DNA of 32,000 nucleotides from Candidatus Heimdallarchaeota archaeon (GTDB taxonomy: Archaea; Asgardarchaeota; Heimdallarchaeia; Heimdallarchaeales; Kariarchaeaceae). A model generated the notes under the pieces. The model did not search any database. It was not told the origin of the DNA and saw only the letters and a program-made list of their open reading frames with translations. Shown in pieces: positions 18,102 to 24,643 of the stretch. A program made the translations under genes and the position numbers. How positions within the stretch are numbered: the stretch's first letter is position 1; every line of letters starts with the position of its first letter. The stretch lies in NCBI GenBank assembly GCA_030149205.1, contig JASBSB010000006.1, forward strand, positions 1 through 32,000. Reading direction: 5' to 3'.

Positions 18102-19025
18102 TTACTTTGTTGACTGAACTTTTTGTGATGATAAATTTCTATCTGCCGTGATGCTCGGTGGGAAGGCTTCCACAAAATCTAAGAATTTTCCAAGTTCGGT
18201 GAAATAATCTGGGTGTTCTGCCATCTGTGAATGAGAAGATTTGGGCACCACCCAGGTAAACACATCATTTCTGTCTTTGATTGTCTCAAAGTTTGGTTTA
18301 AAATGCTTTTCAACAGTGAACCAATCATCCTCAGCACCATGTATGAGGAAAATAGGTGCTTTTATCAATGGCAATAGTCTGCTTGGCCTATTTTCCTCAA
18401 AGGGAAGATTCAGTCTGAACAAGAGCTTTGCAACCCACAGAAACATAAATCGAGGTAGATTTGCCTTTGTGATGGTATCAACAACCATGTCATAGTAATT
18501 GTTTACAAGTGCCTCTGCAACAAGTGCTCTTACATGCACTTTTGAGGCGGCGATTGTTCCTGCTATTGCACCAACCGATAGTCCATGAATTAATGGGTTA
18601 TCTAATCCTTCAGCCTCTATCACCCGCTGTGCATCCTCAGCATAGGTGAATCCCTGCGAGGTGATAGTATACTCACTCTGCCCATGACTTCTAGAATCTA
18701 CAAATACGAGTGAATATCTCCTCTTCCAGTAGATTGCTGCTCTTTCAACCATTCTTGCTGAGTTTCTCCCAAAGCTGTGAAGTAGCACAACCCAGTCATC
18801 TGGATTCTTCTGTTGTGGATTCTCACACACCCAGTAGACAATTCTAGGGTTCTCCAGGGCTTTTCTGGTTTGTGTTCCTTCTTCAAGGCCATAGGGTATT
18901 GTATACTTTTTTGATCTCCAAACCAGGAGATTGTTCATGAAGAATGCGGAGAATATGAGCACCATGAACAGATAGATGACCAGAATTGTCAGGCTAATTG
19001 AGAGAATGAGTGTGGTCAGATTCAC
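18102..19025 (-). CDS. Membrane-anchored alpha/beta hydrolase
   Basis: N-terminal TM helix; VLLHSFG, DSRSHGQS, HGLSVGA nucleophile elbow, LIHGAEDD, SSH candidate triad residues. Confidence 0.85.
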   Translation of the reverse strand: MNLTTLILSISLTILVIYLFMVLIFSAFFMNNLLVWRSKKYTIPYGLEEGTQTRKALENPRIVYWVCENPQQKNPDDWVVLLHSFGRNSARMVERAAIYWKRRYSLVFVDSRSHGQSEYTITSQGFTYAEDAQRVIEAEGLDNPLIHGLSVGAIAGTIAASKVHVRALVAEALVNNYYDMVVDTITKANLPRFMFLWVAKLLFRLNLPFEENRPSRLLPLIKAPIFLIHGAEDDWFTVEKHFKPNFETIKDRNDVFTWVVPKSSHSQMAEHPDYFTELGKFLDFVEAFPPSITADRNLSSQKVQSTK

Positions 19026-19299
19026 CTTGTTTCACACTAATATTCTATGATGATATAATAGATAAGTTTTTCCAACAGAGCAAGTTTCCTGATGAAAATA
19101 ACAATTTCATTGAAATTGAAAACAATACTGATTAGATACTACCAATTGTATTTGCAAGAATCTTGAGAAGCGAATTTTTATTTTGTAAAAAAACCTCTAA
19201 TATTACAAAAAATTTAATGAGGAGGTTTCATTCGAACTATTTCTAAAATCACATACAAAAACAATTCGCTGTTTCAAATCTTTGTGGTTCTTAGAAGTT

Positions 19300-19766
19300 C
19301 CTTTTATTTGGAGGATTACAAAGTCTTCAAATTTCAAATGGGAAGAAGTTTTTTTCCCATGCTAGGTTCAATTCAACGAACCTATCATTAATTTTCTTAT
19401 CTTTTTTCTCTTTAGACTTGGATAAGCCTCTTGTTTTATCCTTTTTTAATTCATCAATATCCCTTTTGATCCAATTATACTCCTTCAATCCCTATTCTTG
19501 TGGTTTTTTAAATCTGAGGAAATTTCATAAGCTAATTTTTCAATTGTTACTGACAAATCTGTTTCAGAAATTTTAAGTTTATCTTAACCTTAATCGTGAA
19601 TATCTCCGGTAAGACACCACTTTATTGCAATGAGTACAGAGGTCTTTCCGGCATCATTATCCTCAATAAAAATCGGCATATCTTTTAAAAATATTGTCAC
19701 ATTTTTCAATAATCTAAAATTCTTAATCTTTGCTTTTACAAGTGTTAAGGAACAGTCTTCCCTCAC
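19300..19766 (-). pseudogene. Decayed N-terminus of an ABC/SMC-superfamily ATPase (Rad50/SbcC/OLD/AAA_15-like)
   Basis: 58-aa ORF 19590-19766 (below the track cutoff): KAKIKNFRLL...IFIEDNDAGKTSVLIAIKWCLTG, a Walker A with Gly-to-Glu decay. The frame continues with in-frame stops; the 19300 boundary is approximate. Confidence 0.65.
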
Positions 19767-19804
19767 GAAAACACTAAATCTTATTTTAATATAAAGCTTA
19801 ATTC

Positions 19805-19819
19805 AAAAAAAAAAAAAAA
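19805..19819. repeat. A15 homopolymer (T15 on minus strand), possible archaeal oligo-T terminator of the GNAT operon
   Basis: 15 consecutive A, 115 nt downstream of the GNAT stop on the minus strand. Terminator role is inference. Confidence 0.45.
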
Positions 19820-19934
19820 TGGCGATATTGGGAAAAGTGAGAACTAACATGTTTGACAAAATTTTCAATATAGCAAATTTGATCCAGAGGGTATAAGGAT
19901 TAACCTCATCTCCTTTATTTACAGTAGCATAAAA

Positions 19935-20426
19935 TCAGCTTACCCACTTTAAATCGAAATACATCGGTTTTACTCGATATGGTGTACCACTATAAGTTCT
20001 ATTTTGTGAGGGTCGATCTTTATCTTTACTAGAAAACCAGGTTAGATCAAATTCTTTGAATTCAAATTTAGAAAACAATCCATTATTACTTTCATTATCT
20101 AAAATATCTGCAATTATTAATCTGATCCCTACGTCCTTACTAAGGTAATAAACCTTGGAAAGCATTTGCTCAATCATGAGTGACGCGATTTTCTTCCTTT
20201 GATAGGTTTTAGATACTGCTAATTGATCAATTTTAACTGCAGGTAAGCGATCATATTCGCCTTCCTTTGCATTTTCCCCCTCACCAATAAAATTAGATTT
20301 TTTTTTTAATGTCACTTTTCCTGCAGATATTGAAATAAAGCCTATGAATTTTTTTGTGACTTTATCTAGATAAAAATATGTTATGTTTAATCTCTGTTCT
20401 ATTGTTGATGGAATGCAATTTAACAA
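19935..20426 (-). CDS. GNAT N-acetyltransferase, TacT/AtaT toxin-like
   Basis: FIGFISISAGKV, RLPAVKIDQLAVSKTYQRKKIAS (motif A), GIRLIIAD. The frame stays open upstream to about 20525, so the true start is probably earlier. Confidence 0.85.
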   Translation of the reverse strand: MLNCIPSTIEQRLNITYFYLDKVTKKFIGFISISAGKVTLKKKSNFIGEGENAKEGEYDRLPAVKIDQLAVSKTYQRKKIASLMIEQMLSKVYYLSKDVGIRLIIADILDNESNNGLFSKFEFKEFDLTWFSSKDKDRPSQNRTYSGTPYRVKPMYFDLKWVS

Positions 20427-20528
20427 AAAATAACCAGTTCTATCATTTTCAGAAATTCTAAAATTGGTTTTATCAATTTGATCATAATCTAAGGTTACAA
20501 TTATCTTATCCTTCGTATAAATTATTCA

Positions 20529-21041
20529 TCACCCGTTACTATTTAAAATTTTATTGAGTTCTTCTTTAGAATATTCTTCTAGTAATTTTGTCATAATCAT
20601 CTTTGCTTTTGGGTTAGGCTTGTCTAATTCATTTAAGAACTCAACTGTGCCTTCTTCAGAAAGTTCATAATCATTATCTATTCCGGATAAGTGAATATAT
20701 AACTCATGCATTTGTTTTTCTACAGTATTAGATATTTCTGAAATTGAAGAATTTTTGAGATACAATCTAATGGGTGGAATTGTTGCTATTTTAGGTTTTT
20801 GTGGAAAATTTTCATATGTTTGAATGGAAATGTTAATGTCTCTATTTGTGTTAAATTTTGATTTAGGAATAAGGTCTTCAAGATTAATTTCTTTTGAGAT
20901 TGGGAATGATTCTTCCAGAGAGAAAGGATATAATTCAGAATCAGAAGATATAATATCGGACGGTGAACGCAAACTTAACTTTGGATCAACTATATTACTT
21001 AACTTTGGATCAACTATATTACTCAACTTTCTCACCTTCAT
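20529..21041 (-). CDS. Hypothetical protein, antitoxin-like (C-terminal segment resembling DUF1778/TacA)
   Basis: 170 aa directly upstream of the GNAT gene; LSEEGTVEFLNELDKPNPKA resembles the LS..F..L..P.PN motif of DUF1778 antitoxins. N-terminal region low-complexity, with an 8-aa repeat. Confidence 0.55.
   Translation of the reverse strand: MKVRKLSNIVDPKLSNIVDPKLSLRSPSDIISSDSELYPFSLEESFPISKEINLEDLIPKSKFNTNRDINISIQTYENFPQKPKIATIPPIRLYLKNSSISEISNTVEKQMHELYIHLSGIDNDYELSEEGTVEFLNELDKPNPKAKMIMTKLLEEYSKEELNKILNSNG
20973..21030. repeat. 24-bp tandem repeat, 2.4 copies
   Basis: acttaactttggatcaactatatt exactly twice (20973-20996, 20997-21020) plus actcaacttt; encodes KLSNIVDP repeats on the minus strand. 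Confidence 0.95.
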
Positions 21042-21678
21042 CTGATATGGTTATTAAGATTTGTTCAAAAGGAACCTTCATCTTCTTCTCAATCCTTTCA
21101 ATGTTTTCCTTGATCGCATCAATCAAACCAATTAATGTTGTGATTGACATTGAAATTTTATGTTTAAAAAAACTCGTTAACTTAGGGTTCTCTTGTTTAA
21201 CCTCTCCCATAATTCTACCAAGGTATAAAACCGCATTATTACCTGAGACTAAAATAAAATAGGAATTAGGTGCAAAATATTCAGTTTCATATGTGATTAG
21301 CATTGGGAAATACTCAACTGAATTATCTTTTGAATTCGAATTTTTATACCTATATGGTTTTCCTTTCTCTTTAATATCTACTTTGACAAATTTTTCTAAT
21401 TTCTGAAGAAAACTACTTAGAGTGTTTGGAGAAAATGTTGCATATAATCTTACATCGAATGCATTTGCTTCAAATTTTAGGTCTCCAAATAATAGTTGGA
21501 AATCGGAATATCCTTCATGGTTTACTAGGATTGAGTCAACTGTATGGGATTTTAAATTTTTGTCAAAAATTGCGATAAAGCCTTCATTAAATTCTTTTCC
21601 ATAAAATTCACCGGAAAGAACAACATTGTTTATATCCACTTGAGCGTTCAATGAGAACCTTCCAGAATGTTGAGTCAT
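21019..21678 (-). CDS. Hypothetical protein; C-terminal domain reminiscent of DUF3467
   Basis: 219 aa, ATG start, overlaps the next gene by 23 nt. C-terminal pattern EYFAPNSY..LYLGRI..KISMSITTLIGLIDAIKENIERIEKK resembles DUF3467 (YxN..F.LDF..RI.MSP..AK.L...L..NI..YE). Weak call. Confidence 0.5.
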   Translation of the reverse strand: MTQHSGRFSLNAQVDINNVVLSGEFYGKEFNEGFIAIFDKNLKSHTVDSILVNHEGYSDFQLLFGDLKFEANAFDVRLYATFSPNTLSSFLQKLEKFVKVDIKEKGKPYRYKNSNSKDNSVEYFPMLITYETEYFAPNSYFILVSGNNAVLYLGRIMGEVKQENPKLTSFFKHKISMSITTLIGLIDAIKENIERIEKKMKVPFEQILITISDEGEKVE

Positions 21679-21984
21679 ATTACATATTACTTGAGCTATC
21701 TTTACTTATTAAGAATAATTAATTGACATAGACACTATATTCAATTAATTCAAATAAATTTGTCAGAATTTGTATACGTATTTCAACTGGTTTCAACGGG
21801 GAGAATTCCTTTCCTACATGTAATTTAAAAGTAAGTTTAGAAATCTATTAACTCTTTTAATTATTTTTTATCATTGTTCAATGTTTTCGACTCTTCAAAA
21901 CCATGAAAATTATTAATTTGAAAATCAAAAGCATTATGTTTCAAATTATGTATATATTAGCAACTTGTAAGAAAACTGAATAAT

Positions 21985-22857
21985 TTAATTTTTAATGATG
22001 TTTGTAATTGAATCTATAATTTGCTGAATTGTTTGCTGTTCTAAGGATACAATGCCTGCCTCCCAATTTTTTCCGGATGTTGAGTTTGCGGTAAAGTTCA
22101 TAGATGAAGCTACTGCTATGGAAGAATCTATGACTAATAGTTTTGCATGAATAGTTTTTTTGTAGTGAATTTTAACACCTTTCTCTCTTAATAAATTATG
22201 AAACTCTTTTTTTTGTTTATCAGGAGACCTTGTGACAAGGGTTGTTTTAACTTTAGAACTCGCAGCTCCAATTAATTTTTTTGAAAGACTGGTTTCATCC
22301 ACAAATGGGTTTACAATCAAAACACTCGTTTTTGCATTTTTTATTAATTGAATTGATAGGTTTTGTAAATTGTCTCCTTCTAAGAAAAAGTGTTTGTTAG
22401 TTAAATTTGTTTCAGGTTTGTTCAATTTGATCCAATTATCCAACCAATTGCTTTTTACTAAATTTTTATTGGATTTCGAATTGGATTCTGGTCTATGGTT
22501 ATTTGGATTGTTGTTTGTCTGAGAATAATCTTTATATTCTCTATAAATATCGTAGACTACTCTGTATTCATCAAATTCATTTTTCTCAAGAATATCAAGT
22601 TCAAATAATTCAGCCAAAACCTTGTTGAGATGCTTAGGGTTCAATCTTGTCAACTCTCTGATGTCCTCCCAAGATTTTGCATTATTAACCGCAATAGCAT
22701 CGATAACTTTCCCTTTCCATGACCCATAAAAAATGGGTATTGAAACATTCATCATTGTTTTTTTTAATTTCAATATAAAAAGATACAAATTTTCAATTAT
22801 GGAACAATCAAAAATAATTTTGCGTATAGTATGGACTAACCGCAATCTATGAGACAT
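21985..22857 (-). CDS. Winged-helix plus single-HKD phospholipase D-like nuclease (probable start 22755 or 22752)
   Basis: N-terminal WEDIRELTRLNPKHLNKVLAELFELDILEK (wHTH-like), Asn-rich linker, LIKNAKTSVLIVNPFV, IHAKLLVID (HxKxxxxD), SSMNFT, NWEAGI. Confidence 0.8.
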   Translation of the reverse strand: MSHRLRLVHTIRKIIFDCSIIENLYLFILKLKKTMMNVSIPIFYGSWKGKVIDAIAVNNAKSWEDIRELTRLNPKHLNKVLAELFELDILEKNEFDEYRVVYDIYREYKDYSQTNNNPNNHRPESNSKSNKNLVKSNWLDNWIKLNKPETNLTNKHFFLEGDNLQNLSIQLIKNAKTSVLIVNPFVDETSLSKKLIGAASSKVKTTLVTRSPDKQKKEFHNLLREKGVKIHYKKTIHAKLLVIDSSIAVASSMNFTANSTSGKNWEAGIVSLEQQTIQQIIDSITNIIKN

Positions 22858-23182
22858 AGTATGATGATTAATTGTGCAAAAATGATTACAGGATATTAGA
22901 AAGAAGAAAAGAATTAGATGATAAATTATGAACCAAAAGGAGTTAATTAGATATTAAGAAGGTGTGCTATGTTATGAATTTGATCCTAGGCATGTATCAC
23001 CTCCACATTTGAATTTATGGTGGTTAGACTCAATGAACCGAAGGTGAACACCCTTGGCAAAGACAGTAGAAAGAGATATAGACCATGAGTTCTAAATGCC
23101 ATTAATATACTTCAAGTGTGTAAAGATATAAACATTTTGTAATTAAATTTACAATATGATACGAATTTTGTTTCTTAGTACC

Positions 23183-24643
23183 TTAAGCTAGCTCTTCACC
23201 ACCACTCACCCTTTGAATGTTATGAATCAGCTCATTCAATGCGGTGATTACTCCAGCGATGGTAGCAGATGATGCGTTTAATGCAGTCCCTGGCTCATGG
23301 ATCAGTTTGTTTCTCAAAAATCTGAACTCGTTGATTCCCGAGTAACCTTTTTCAGAGAGACATTGATTATCCAACAATAGCTTCGTCATTTCAAAGAAGT
23401 TAAGGCTGGTGCTCTCCAGATCTGCAAATACAGCTGTACTTTCTCGAATAAGATGCTCCGTCATTCTGTACATTACTAAAAATGCAACCGTTTGTTGGTC
23501 TTGATCAAGGTTTCTCCAGTTCGTTAACTGATTTCTAACATAAGAGAGATCCGAATTTAAAGCCAATAACTCTGCTTCATCTATCTCAAGCTTTCCAAAC
23601 TTCTCTCCAAGTAGAAGTCGATCTATGGTGGTGTTTCTCCCTGTTTTGGCCTTGAACTCGGCTTTTGAGTCTAATATCTTTCGATATTCTCTCCAAGCAA
23701 GCTTTAATCCAAGACGTTTTCGTGATTCTATAAGCAACTCTTGAGCAATCAATGGTCCCACCAATTCATCAAGCTTATCCTTATACAATTCGGTGATCTT
23801 TCTTTGCTGTCTCCTCTCAATAAGTTCATCCAGATCATATGCAACAATTGATCGAATTTGTTCCTTTCTAATGTAGCTGGTTAATTCAGTTTCTTGAAAC
23901 AATATTGGGATTGTATATGGGAGAAAATTTTCAATTTTTCTCATTGAAATTCTAAATATAACTATTGAACCAGCTATTAGGAGACCAAAAAATAGGAGAA
24001 GTATAAAGAAAAGCCCATAGTTTTCAATATAATCTAGAACAACGAAGAGGATATTTATTGAAGTTACTTTCATTATGAGAACCAAAACAAGGTTTAGGAT
24101 CATAAACAAAAACGTGTATCCACTAAACAACGCCAAGCTCTCATAATACTCAAGATTTAGAAGTTCTCTCTGTATGGAAGAATCTTCTCTTCTGAATTGG
24201 AAGGACTCAATGTAATATATGGTGGTACTCTTTGCGATATTTGGAACTAAATTCTCCTTCAAAGATTCATAAATTGCCTCACGCTCAACACTATTTACTG
24301 AGAGTTCCATTGACAGAGTGGAGTAAGTGAGGTCTTTAGAACCCTCACCATCGTGCAATATCAGAACATTGTAAAGCCCACGTGCTATAATATGCTCAAG
24401 CCTCGGTTGAAGTCTTCCTAACCATACAATCAAATATGGAGACCCCACATAAAAAATAACTATAAAGAAGAAGAGGATAAACCCTCCCAGTACTACCTCA
24501 GAAGTAATGTTTTGATACCTTAAGGTGGCATATAGGAACAGCAGAGTTAATTCAAACAAGATTGGTGAAAGAATTCCGATGATAAACCGTTGACTGAAGA
24601 AATTCACAATCCCTATGATAAACCGTTGACTAGAGAAATTCAC
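23183..24643 (-). CDS. Multi-TM membrane protein with C-terminal HEPN-like domain
   Basis: About 4 hydrophobic segments in the N-terminal half, then a charged helical region. C-terminal AFLVMYRMTEHLIRE...INEFRFLRNKLIHEPG carries an R-x4-H motif. Confidence 0.6.
   Translation of the reverse strand: MNFSSQRFIIGIVNFFSQRFIIGILSPILFELTLLFLYATLRYQNITSEVVLGGFILFFFIVIFYVGSPYLIVWLGRLQPRLEHIIARGLYNVLILHDGEGSKDLTYSTLSMELSVNSVEREAIYESLKENLVPNIAKSTTIYYIESFQFRREDSSIQRELLNLEYYESLALFSGYTFLFMILNLVLVLIMKVTSINILFVVLDYIENYGLFFILLLFFGLLIAGSIVIFRISMRKIENFLPYTIPILFQETELTSYIRKEQIRSIVAYDLDELIERRQQRKITELYKDKLDELVGPLIAQELLIESRKRLGLKLAWREYRKILDSKAEFKAKTGRNTTIDRLLLGEKFGKLEIDEAELLALNSDLSYVRNQLTNWRNLDQDQQTVAFLVMYRMTEHLIRESTAVFADLESTSLNFFEMTKLLLDNQCLSEKGYSGINEFRFLRNKLIHEPGTALNASSATIAGVITALNELIHNIQRVSGGEELA
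24572..24643. repeat. 36-bp imperfect tandem duplication at the 5' end of the TM-HEPN gene
   Basis: aattccgatgataaaccgttgactgaagaaattcac vs aatccctatgataaaccgttgactagagaaattcac (32/36 identical); encodes VNF(S/F)SQRFIIGI twice. Confidence 0.9.

Follow-up and report, generated by a model that had tools for sequence, protein, structure and literature searches.

Three head-to-tail genes end in a GNAT close to tRNA-acetylating toxins

We analysed a window of 32,000 nucleotides from a Candidatus Heimdallarchaeota archaeon (GenBank assembly GCA_030149205.1, contig JASBSB010000006.1, positions 1 to 32,000), whose genome comprises 3.3 Mb in 12 contigs, and focused on a trio of minus-strand genes that lie head to tail within it. 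In order of reading, these are gene A, which codes for a two-repeat DUF3467-like protein, gene B, which codes for an orphan protein and putative antitoxin, and an open frame for a GNAT acetyltransferase and putative toxin (Table 1). By going through the open reading frame (ORF) list and the sequence, we recovered the layout that an initial annotation of this DNA had described, that is a 23-nt overlap between A and B and a TGATG stop/start junction between B and the GNAT frame. In our estimate the chances are about even that the trio is a tripartite toxin-antitoxin (TA)-type module, in which the GNAT would be the toxin, B would neutralise it and A would have an accessory and probably regulatory part.

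PADLOC and NCBIfam gave no match for A, B or the GNAT. Pfam Acetyltransf_1 recognizes the window GNAT with 22 bits, against a cut-off of 20.7, and the best phmmer matches in the PDB are TacT (E 4e-4), AtaT2 (E 9e-3) and KacT. By searching with the structure model in Foldseek, we found that ranks 1 to about 37 were all occupied by TacT1-3, AtaT, AtaT2, KacT or GmvT (E 4e-8 to 1e-5), the first non-toxin match being Naa60 (E 1e-4). This model, built from three sequences, is poor (pLDDT 53.8), so that the Foldseek ranking is partly driven by sequence. The LPAVKIDQLAV motif, which had been described as toxin-type, does occur in the frame, where it lines up with the strand IPVIILARLAV / LPVVVLGRLAI in TacT and AtaT2. 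The GNAT is specifically nearest to the clade of tRNA-acetylating toxins, and the toxin likeness proposed in the initial annotation is borne out by these closest sequence and fold matches. A profile search of the PDB with the GNAT alignment gave nothing at E 0.01, P0005 as sole query found no toxin, and a word-indexed search with the GNAT of a second genome (G004, see below) returned only itself and one relative at 88%.

The genome of the window also codes for a second GNAT of 182 aa (G000:C2:447248-447796), whose similarity to the window GNAT is weak and covers the motif A region (E 2e-4). Its motif A reads RMGIAS and no antitoxin-like gene lies upstream of it.

The cassette recurs in two other genomes, once with a PIN protein

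A profile search among 1.84 billion protein representatives gathered the A family in 19 clusters. A was found in 3 of the 83 genomes of the class and in 3 of the 400 genomes of the phylum (Asgard), so that among the genomes searched it is confined to Heimdallarchaeia. A scan of the genome contigs found again only G004 and G031, and nothing came out of two metagenome scans and one viral scan. Hence, the contexts of A could be read at three loci: the window, G004, which belongs to the same family and another genus, and G031, which belongs to the same order and another family.

The co-occurrence of the triplet elsewhere, which the initial annotation had proposed as a check, was found in G004. There, the same A-B-GNAT order recurs on one strand with gaps of 2 nt and 18 nt; A (about 246 aa) is 33% identical to its window counterpart, B has 140 aa, and the GNAT (about 199 aa) is 48% identical to that of the window. 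The G031 locus has an A homologue of 218 aa and, behind it, genes for proteins of 110 aa and 161 aa, with overlaps of 8 and 17 nt. Both Pfam (E 0.011) and the Atlas (score 0.96, 25 of 30 matches being in the PIN set) identified the 161-aa product of the third gene as a PIN domain. Since the G031 A precedes a small protein and a PIN protein, A heads cassettes with different toxins. The swap from GNAT to PIN comes with a change of the middle protein: B is unrelated to the middle protein of the PIN module, B' (E 3.3), and no motif common to B and B' that could serve as an A-binding element was found. The flanking genes of the three loci have nothing in common. The cassette is patchy and independent of its neighbours, with A kept constant and the downstream pair exchanged together, and therefore behaves as a TA module.

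Gene B codes for an orphan protein with one conserved segment

We searched for relatives of B in several ways. The word-indexed search against 5.8 billion proteins returned only B itself, Pfam gave no match at E<=1, the PDB profile search with the B alignment listed no TacA, KacA or AtaR at E<=10, and an Atlas look-alike search with the C-terminus yielded no usable match. The initial annotation had likened the end of B to the neutralising segment of DUF1778 antitoxins, while seeing no clear ribbon-helix-helix (RHH) N-terminus. The latter view agrees with our data, as neither RHH nor any other Pfam domain was found in B. The DUF1778 likeness was not recovered in Pfam, PF08681 or PDB profile searches, and a six-frame search with PF08681 found nothing in the window genome and 0 of the 83 class genomes above the cut-off. 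The sequence LSEEGTVEFLNELDKPNPKA, with which B was said to end, is present at residues 127-146, near the end of B and not at it. What remains of the link to DUF1778 antitoxins is a resemblance of form.

By comparing B with its G004 counterpart in BLASTP, we found a single segment in common, residues 115-157, with 37% identity over 43 aa (E 9e-7). It is laid out as a helix, a K-P-N-P-K linker (P-x-P) and a helix. The N-terminal ~95 residues are of low complexity and not conserved even between these two B proteins of GNAT modules. No DNA-binding family was detected in B with Pfam and NCBIfam, nor any conserved N-terminal domain, a statement that rests on absence of evidence. Charge calculation gave an acidic C-terminal part (pI, isoelectric point, of 4.7), complementary to the basic GNAT (pI 9.3). 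In KacA, the betaB-alphaC-PPAP-alphaD C-terminal region wraps KacT and blocks acetyl-coenzyme A (AcCoA) binding (PMC6698736). A conserved toxin-specific segment in an otherwise freely varying protein is the pattern that a cognate antitoxin would leave, and residues 115-157 are thus our candidate for the toxin-neutralising segment. Conservation, charge and position, and these only, lead us to infer that B would neutralise the GNAT by way of this C-terminal segment.

Gene A codes for a two-repeat DUF3467-like protein

The DUF3467-like C-terminal domain that had been proposed for A holds at the level of profiles. Window A itself has no Pfam match at E<=1, DUF3467 included; the G031 homologue reaches 23.3 bits on DUF3467 (PF11950; E 6.7e-5), where the gathering cut-off is 25, and 4 of the 19 members of the A family match it, with a best E of 1.4e-5. 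When the C-terminal domain of the family was compared in hhalign with 30 Heimdall DUF3467 proteins, the probability was 93.5% (E 2e-7), and the N-terminal domain of A matched its C-terminal domain at 84.9% probability. In the AlphaFold model (pLDDT 80.8, pTM 0.75), a disordered, Lys-rich basic linker connects two beta-beta-beta-beta-alpha repeats, which span about residues 25-102 and 133-215.

Pur-alpha was the top fold match of this model by both methods (VIA Z 7.0, root-mean-square deviation 3.9, 107 residues aligned; Foldseek E 5e-3). Next in VIA came two cyanobacterial proteins of unknown function (Z 6.6), followed by MRP1/2 (Z 4.7) and PBF-2 (Z 3.6), which are Whirly-like. Neither RHH nor helix-turn-helix (HTH) was found in A by Pfam or in the model. 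For SecB, A had no Pfam match at E<=1, and neither the 50 best VIA matches nor the Foldseek matches included it, a family outside these matches not being excluded thereby. A fold search of BFVD gave nothing at E<=0.001, and the word-indexed search with A returned nothing beyond the query itself.

Canonical one-repeat DUF3467 genes (about 110-130 aa) occur in 44 of the 83 class genomes, and their neighbourhood is often conserved within one family. This suggests that the ancestral form of DUF3467 has a housekeeping role. Because the canonical genes are single-repeat and lie away from toxins, we consider A as a diverged, duplicated and toxin-linked offshoot. A full-text literature search found no published function for DUF3467, the sole mention being on an unrelated subject.

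The GNAT frame is coding and out of register with the junction ATG

At the G+C content of 29%, about 8% of random codons are stops, and by simple arithmetic the chance of a random open frame of 196 codons is about 6e-8. Therefore, the GNAT frame is coding. The initial annotation had called for a repaired N-terminus, and the sequence of the junction explains why. The TGA of B (20529-20531) shares its A with an ATG (20527-20529) in GGGTGATG, and this ATG opens a frame of 8 codons only (MNNLYEG-stop), the GNAT frame being +1 relative to it. In G004, a GAGGTG Shine-Dalgarno-like motif precedes the GTGATG at which the GNAT starts, and the IRYTT/IIVTL strand common to both proteins follows ~11 codons later. 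An equivalent GTGATG is found at the junction in the window, shifted by one base relative to the frame. We consider it most likely that a single-base indel in the first eight GNAT codons, either a real mutation or an error of the assembly, caused this shift. As the frame is otherwise intact, either the break arose very recently, or it is an indel that the assembly introduced in an A/T run, or it is bypassed; in the last case the GNAT would start either at the TTG at 20426, at an unusual start, or through a +1 shift at GGA-TAA-G. Read-through from B into the GNAT as a fusion was rejected: the two share a frame, yet TGA-TGA separates them.

Surroundings of the cassette

The G+C content is 0.26-0.31 over 19001-23000, with flanks at 0.44 and 0.38. 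The trio had been placed inside an AT-rich islet; the low G+C stands, and the distinctness of the islet is only modest because much of the window is likewise AT-rich. No tRNA genes or Rfam families were found in the window. We also tried to recognize the islet as an insertion by synteny within the genus and gave this up, as the proteins are only 40-54% identical and the marker genes lie on separate contigs.

Upstream of A, a TATA-like TTAATAAG occupies 21705-21712, at -27 to -34 relative to the ATG, and is accompanied by a perfect inverted repeat of 10 nt, AATTAATTGA/TCAATTAATT, with its arms at 21717-21726 and 21741-21750. Both are statistically weak in AT-rich DNA and not conserved at the two other loci, so the pair is put forward as a candidate promoter/operator only. 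Through the tandem duplication at the A/B junction, the N-terminus of B has gained SNIVDPKL.

Directly downstream of the GNAT frame lies a 58-aa N-terminal remnant, Walker A included, of an AAA_15/AAA_23 (OLD/RecF-like) ATPase; its AAA_15 match is above the Pfam cut-off (E 7.4e-10), and stops interrupt the remainder of the gene, in frames that extend down to about 19200. The gene directly upstream of the triplet, likewise within the AT-rich stretch, codes for a single-HKD PLD nuclease domain (PLDc_2, E 1.8e-16; DrmC/NucT-like according to PADLOC and NCBIfam) with a fused winged-helix N-terminus that is TFIIE-alpha/TrmB-like. Given the broken GNAT start, the ATPase remnant and the winged-helix nuclease, the setting looks like a small, eroding defence islet. 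A defence role of the cassette is suggested solely by its neighbours, namely the nuclease and the ATPase remnant.

Farther upstream is a gene for a 486-aa membrane protein, with full-length homologues of 44-46% identity on unrelated contigs of all three genomes of the same genus. Because of this conservation we take it as a core gene, and it was rejected as a member of the islet. Its start carries a fresh in-frame tandem duplication of 36 nt (89% identical, ..SQRFIIGI twice). This duplication and that at the A/B junction, both at 5' ends, may reflect a local habit of replication slippage in this genome. Downstream of the G004 triplet (L013 734-4462, G004:C68) we noted genes for two proteins, one of 443 aa with leucine-rich repeats and one of 753 aa with a P-loop (Walker A), possibly another defence-type neighbourhood.

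Table 1. Positions of the cassette genes, of elements within and around them, and of neighbouring genes in the window
Feature	Positions	Strand	Description and basis
Gene A	21019-21678	-	219 aa; ORF
Gene B	20529-21041	-	170 aa; ORF; orphan protein, putative antitoxin
GNAT frame	19935-20525	-	196 codons + stop; open from 20525 to 19938, just past the TGA-TGA of B, with the stop at 19935-19937; TacT/AtaT/KacT-like acetyltransferase, putative toxin
Conserved segment of B	20571-20699	-	residues 115-157 (YIHLSG...ELSEEGTVEFLNELDKPNPKAKMIMTKLLEEY); BLASTP vs G004 B; candidate neutralising segment
Stop/start junction of B and GNAT	20506-20531	-	TGATG; sequence
Tandem duplication at A-stop/B-start junction	20973-21020		perfect 24 nt, two copies, 100% identity; repeat scan
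Candidate promoter/operator 5' of A	21705-21750	-	sequence and inverted-repeat scan
ATPase remnant	19590-19766	-	58 aa
Winged-helix PLD nuclease	21985-22857	-
Membrane protein	23183-24643	-	486 aa
Tandem duplication in membrane protein gene	24572-24643		36 nt

Discussion

Taking our observations together, we propose that a three-gene, translationally coupled cassette of TA type would move as a unit among Heimdallarchaeia. The GNAT would be its toxin, belonging by homology to the aminoacyl-tRNA-acetylating clade. B would be the cognate protein antitoxin, whose C-terminal helix-PNP-helix (residues 115-157) might wrap around the basic GNAT and so block it, in the manner of the C-termini of KacA and AtaR. 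A may then supply the nucleic-acid-binding or regulatory function that B is without, as omega or PaaR2 does in the systems compared below. In the genome of the window the module would be partly decayed, with the GNAT out of register with its start and a truncated defence-type ATPase gene adjoining.

The role of A is the least certain step of this scheme. If the module is a TA system, we lean only tentatively, with somewhat less than even confidence, towards A as a nucleic-acid-binding or regulatory component. Four considerations lead us there: A comes first in the gene order, neither a DNA-binding domain nor a conserved N-terminal part was detected in B, no possible A-binding element is common to the middle proteins of the two kinds of module (GNAT and PIN), and the best fold matches of A are nucleic-acid binders.

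Several observations weigh against the proposed TA module, and some of them would also fit other explanations. In the toxins the catalytic Tyr lies in the motif B helix (TacT Y140, AtaT Y144, KacT Y145; PMC6698736 and PDB titles). Its position is taken in the window by Phe151 (20073-20075), which in the alignments falls on the Tyr of AtaT2 (NFYLKYAF) and on the residue that is mutated in TacT (NFFIHHGF); the TacT, AtaT Y144F and KacT Y145F structures are those of Y-to-F mutants. According to the family alignment, Phe is there in 3 of 3 members with no Tyr nearby, and hence the chemistry of the GNAT may differ from that of the toxins. In the AcCoA loop, set against the motif Q/R-x-x-G-x-G/A, Lys replaces the central Gly (Q-R-K-K-I-A in the window, Q-G-M-K-I-A in the relatives, H-G-K-G-L-G in TacT). 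With both changes, the GNAT may be inactive or act differently. The frame has no canonical start at its 5' end either, the first one in frame being the TTG at 20426. B shows no detectable similarity to any antitoxin family in all the searches given above. For A, the Z-score with Pur-alpha falls where unrelated models commonly score (Z 7-8), so that the fold assignment is a lead and not a proof, and with pI values of 5.6-9.6 across the family there is no consistent basic surface. The canonical DUF3467 genes of Heimdallarchaeia are solitary among housekeeping genes, with no toxin-like neighbours among the listed ORFs, these neighbours being ORFs that were not family-scanned. Finally, just three contexts of A are available, two of them from relatives with the same toxin. 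Part of this would fit a GNAT that is no toxin but a protein of acetyltransferase fold, either ordinary or catalytically dead, which acts together with two partners, for example in a ligand-binding or modification complex. The Phe and the non-canonical AcCoA loop, a conserved C-terminal extension of ~35 residues (WFSS.D..PS..R) that the solved toxins are without, the want of an antitoxin family for B and the canonical DUF3467 genes of the class, which are not toxin-linked, would all agree with it. However, the exchange of GNAT for PIN behind the same head gene is typical TA modularity and hard to reconcile with a common metabolic role, the cassette occurs patchily and irrespective of the genes around it, all of the closest relatives of the GNAT are toxins, and the genes overlap and are tightly coupled. 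We therefore hold this explanation to be quite improbable.

The main rival keeps the tripartite TA module and changes the part of A, which would be a dedicated chaperone or stabiliser of B, in a SecB-independent analogue of the toxin-antitoxin-chaperone (TAC) systems. Such systems are established (PMC5105189, PMC6377645), and the long, variable and probably disordered N-terminal half of B, with its low-complexity stretch of ~95 residues that is not conserved between GNAT modules, would need A to fold or to escape proteolysis. A is also the conserved partner across toxin types, and its sheet-plus-helix repeats resemble SecB in general architecture. However, SecB neither gave A a Pfam match nor came among its 50 best fold matches, and the A gene comes first where TAC chaperones usually come last. 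In addition, TAC antitoxins keep a DNA-binding domain and add a C-terminal ChAD tail, whereas no DNA-binding domain was detected in B, whose conserved part is C-terminal and toxin-specific, and B and B' have no motif in common that A could bind. On this evidence we regard a chaperone role as unlikely. Whatever the part of A, the window copy itself could be a non-functional relic, with the GNAT a pseudogene frameshifted in its first eight codons and A and B left as an antitoxin remnant. The junction ATG, +1 out of register and followed by a stop after 7 codons where the G004 homologue has a clear Shine-Dalgarno motif and GTGATG, speaks for such decay, as do the adjoining AAA_15 ATPase gene cut down to its 58-aa N-terminal piece and the fresh 24-nt duplication at the A/B junction. 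Nevertheless, the remaining GNAT frame is intact over 196 codons in DNA of 29% G+C, and we rate a relic as a serious possibility that falls some way short of even.

Returning to the proposed TA module, its closest known counterparts are the GNAT toxins with RHH or HTH antitoxins, which are well known in bacteria (PMC9177977, PMC6698736). With TacAT, AtaRT, KacAT and GmvAT the cassette has in common a small basic GNAT toxin, for which these are the nearest relatives, the (L/I)P(A/V)V.I..LAV strand, and a putative antitoxin encoded just upstream with an acidic C-terminal helix, a Pro-linker and a helix. It differs from them in that B is twice as large and shows no RHH/DUF1778 similarity, there is a third gene in front of the pair, the toxin has the Phe, the AcCoA-loop Lys and the ~35-residue C-terminal extension, and the cassette resides in an Asgard archaeon.

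Three-component TA systems with a regulator encoded by the first gene are represented by omega-epsilon-zeta of pSM19035, in which omega is an RHH protein, and by paaR2-paaA2-parE2 of E. coli O157:H7, in which PaaR2 is an HTH protein. The likeness lies in the order accessory, antitoxin, toxin, which is A-B-toxin at 3 of 3 loci, in the tight coupling, and in an antitoxin without its own DNA-binding domain, none having been detected for B. Unlike omega and PaaR2, A is neither RHH nor HTH but a fused two-repeat DUF3467/Pur-alpha-like protein, whose binding to DNA is putative.

As for TAC systems, such as M. tuberculosis HigB1-HigA1-SecB(TA) and CmdTAC (PMC5105189, PMC6377645, PMC11618068), the cassette is likewise tripartite with an accessory protein conserved across toxin families, and a role in anti-phage defence is possible. 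In contrast to them, no SecB homology was detected by Pfam or among the best fold matches, and the accessory gene stands first and not last. No ChAD-type C-terminal extension could be recognized on B, ChAD elements having no sequence model in this analysis, and the conserved C-terminus of B co-varies with the toxin. Regarding DUF3467 and the Pur-alpha/Whirly proteins, the C-terminal repeat of A matches the DUF3467 profile and, according to the model, the two beta-beta-beta-beta-alpha repeats would pack as in a PUR domain. A differs from DUF3467 proteins in being a covalent tandem of ~220 aa instead of ~110, in falling below the Pfam threshold, and in being toxin-linked where the canonical genes are solitary.

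Three-part TA systems with SecB chaperones or with RHH/HTH regulators are thus already known. What is new here is the third component, a fused two-repeat DUF3467/PUR-like protein, together with an antitoxin that belongs to no known family and a GNAT of the toxin clade in which the catalytic Tyr is missing. A bolder possibility, which we consider doubtful, is that the covalently duplicated, DUF3467/PUR-like A family is restricted to Asgard archaea and forms the defining head protein of a new three-component TA/defence class with interchangeable antitoxin-toxin pairs. A would then be unrelated to SecB chaperones and to RHH/HTH regulators, and one of the toxins would be a GNAT without the canonical Tyr, with altered chemistry or acting by binding alone.

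For the widespread DUF3467 family, the head position in cassettes with different toxins offers a role that can be tested. To our knowledge, the TA and defence biology of Asgard archaea is almost unexplored experimentally. These archaea are the closest prokaryotic relatives of eukaryotes, and since Pur-alpha/Whirly folds are mainly known from eukaryotic nucleic-acid-binding proteins, such a fold in an Asgard protein would have some evolutionary interest. Moreover, the Tyr-to-Phe change is the very one used for disarming TacT, AtaT and KacT in crystallography, and a GNAT that carries it naturally could reveal how such toxins are tamed or an alternative mechanism by which they act.

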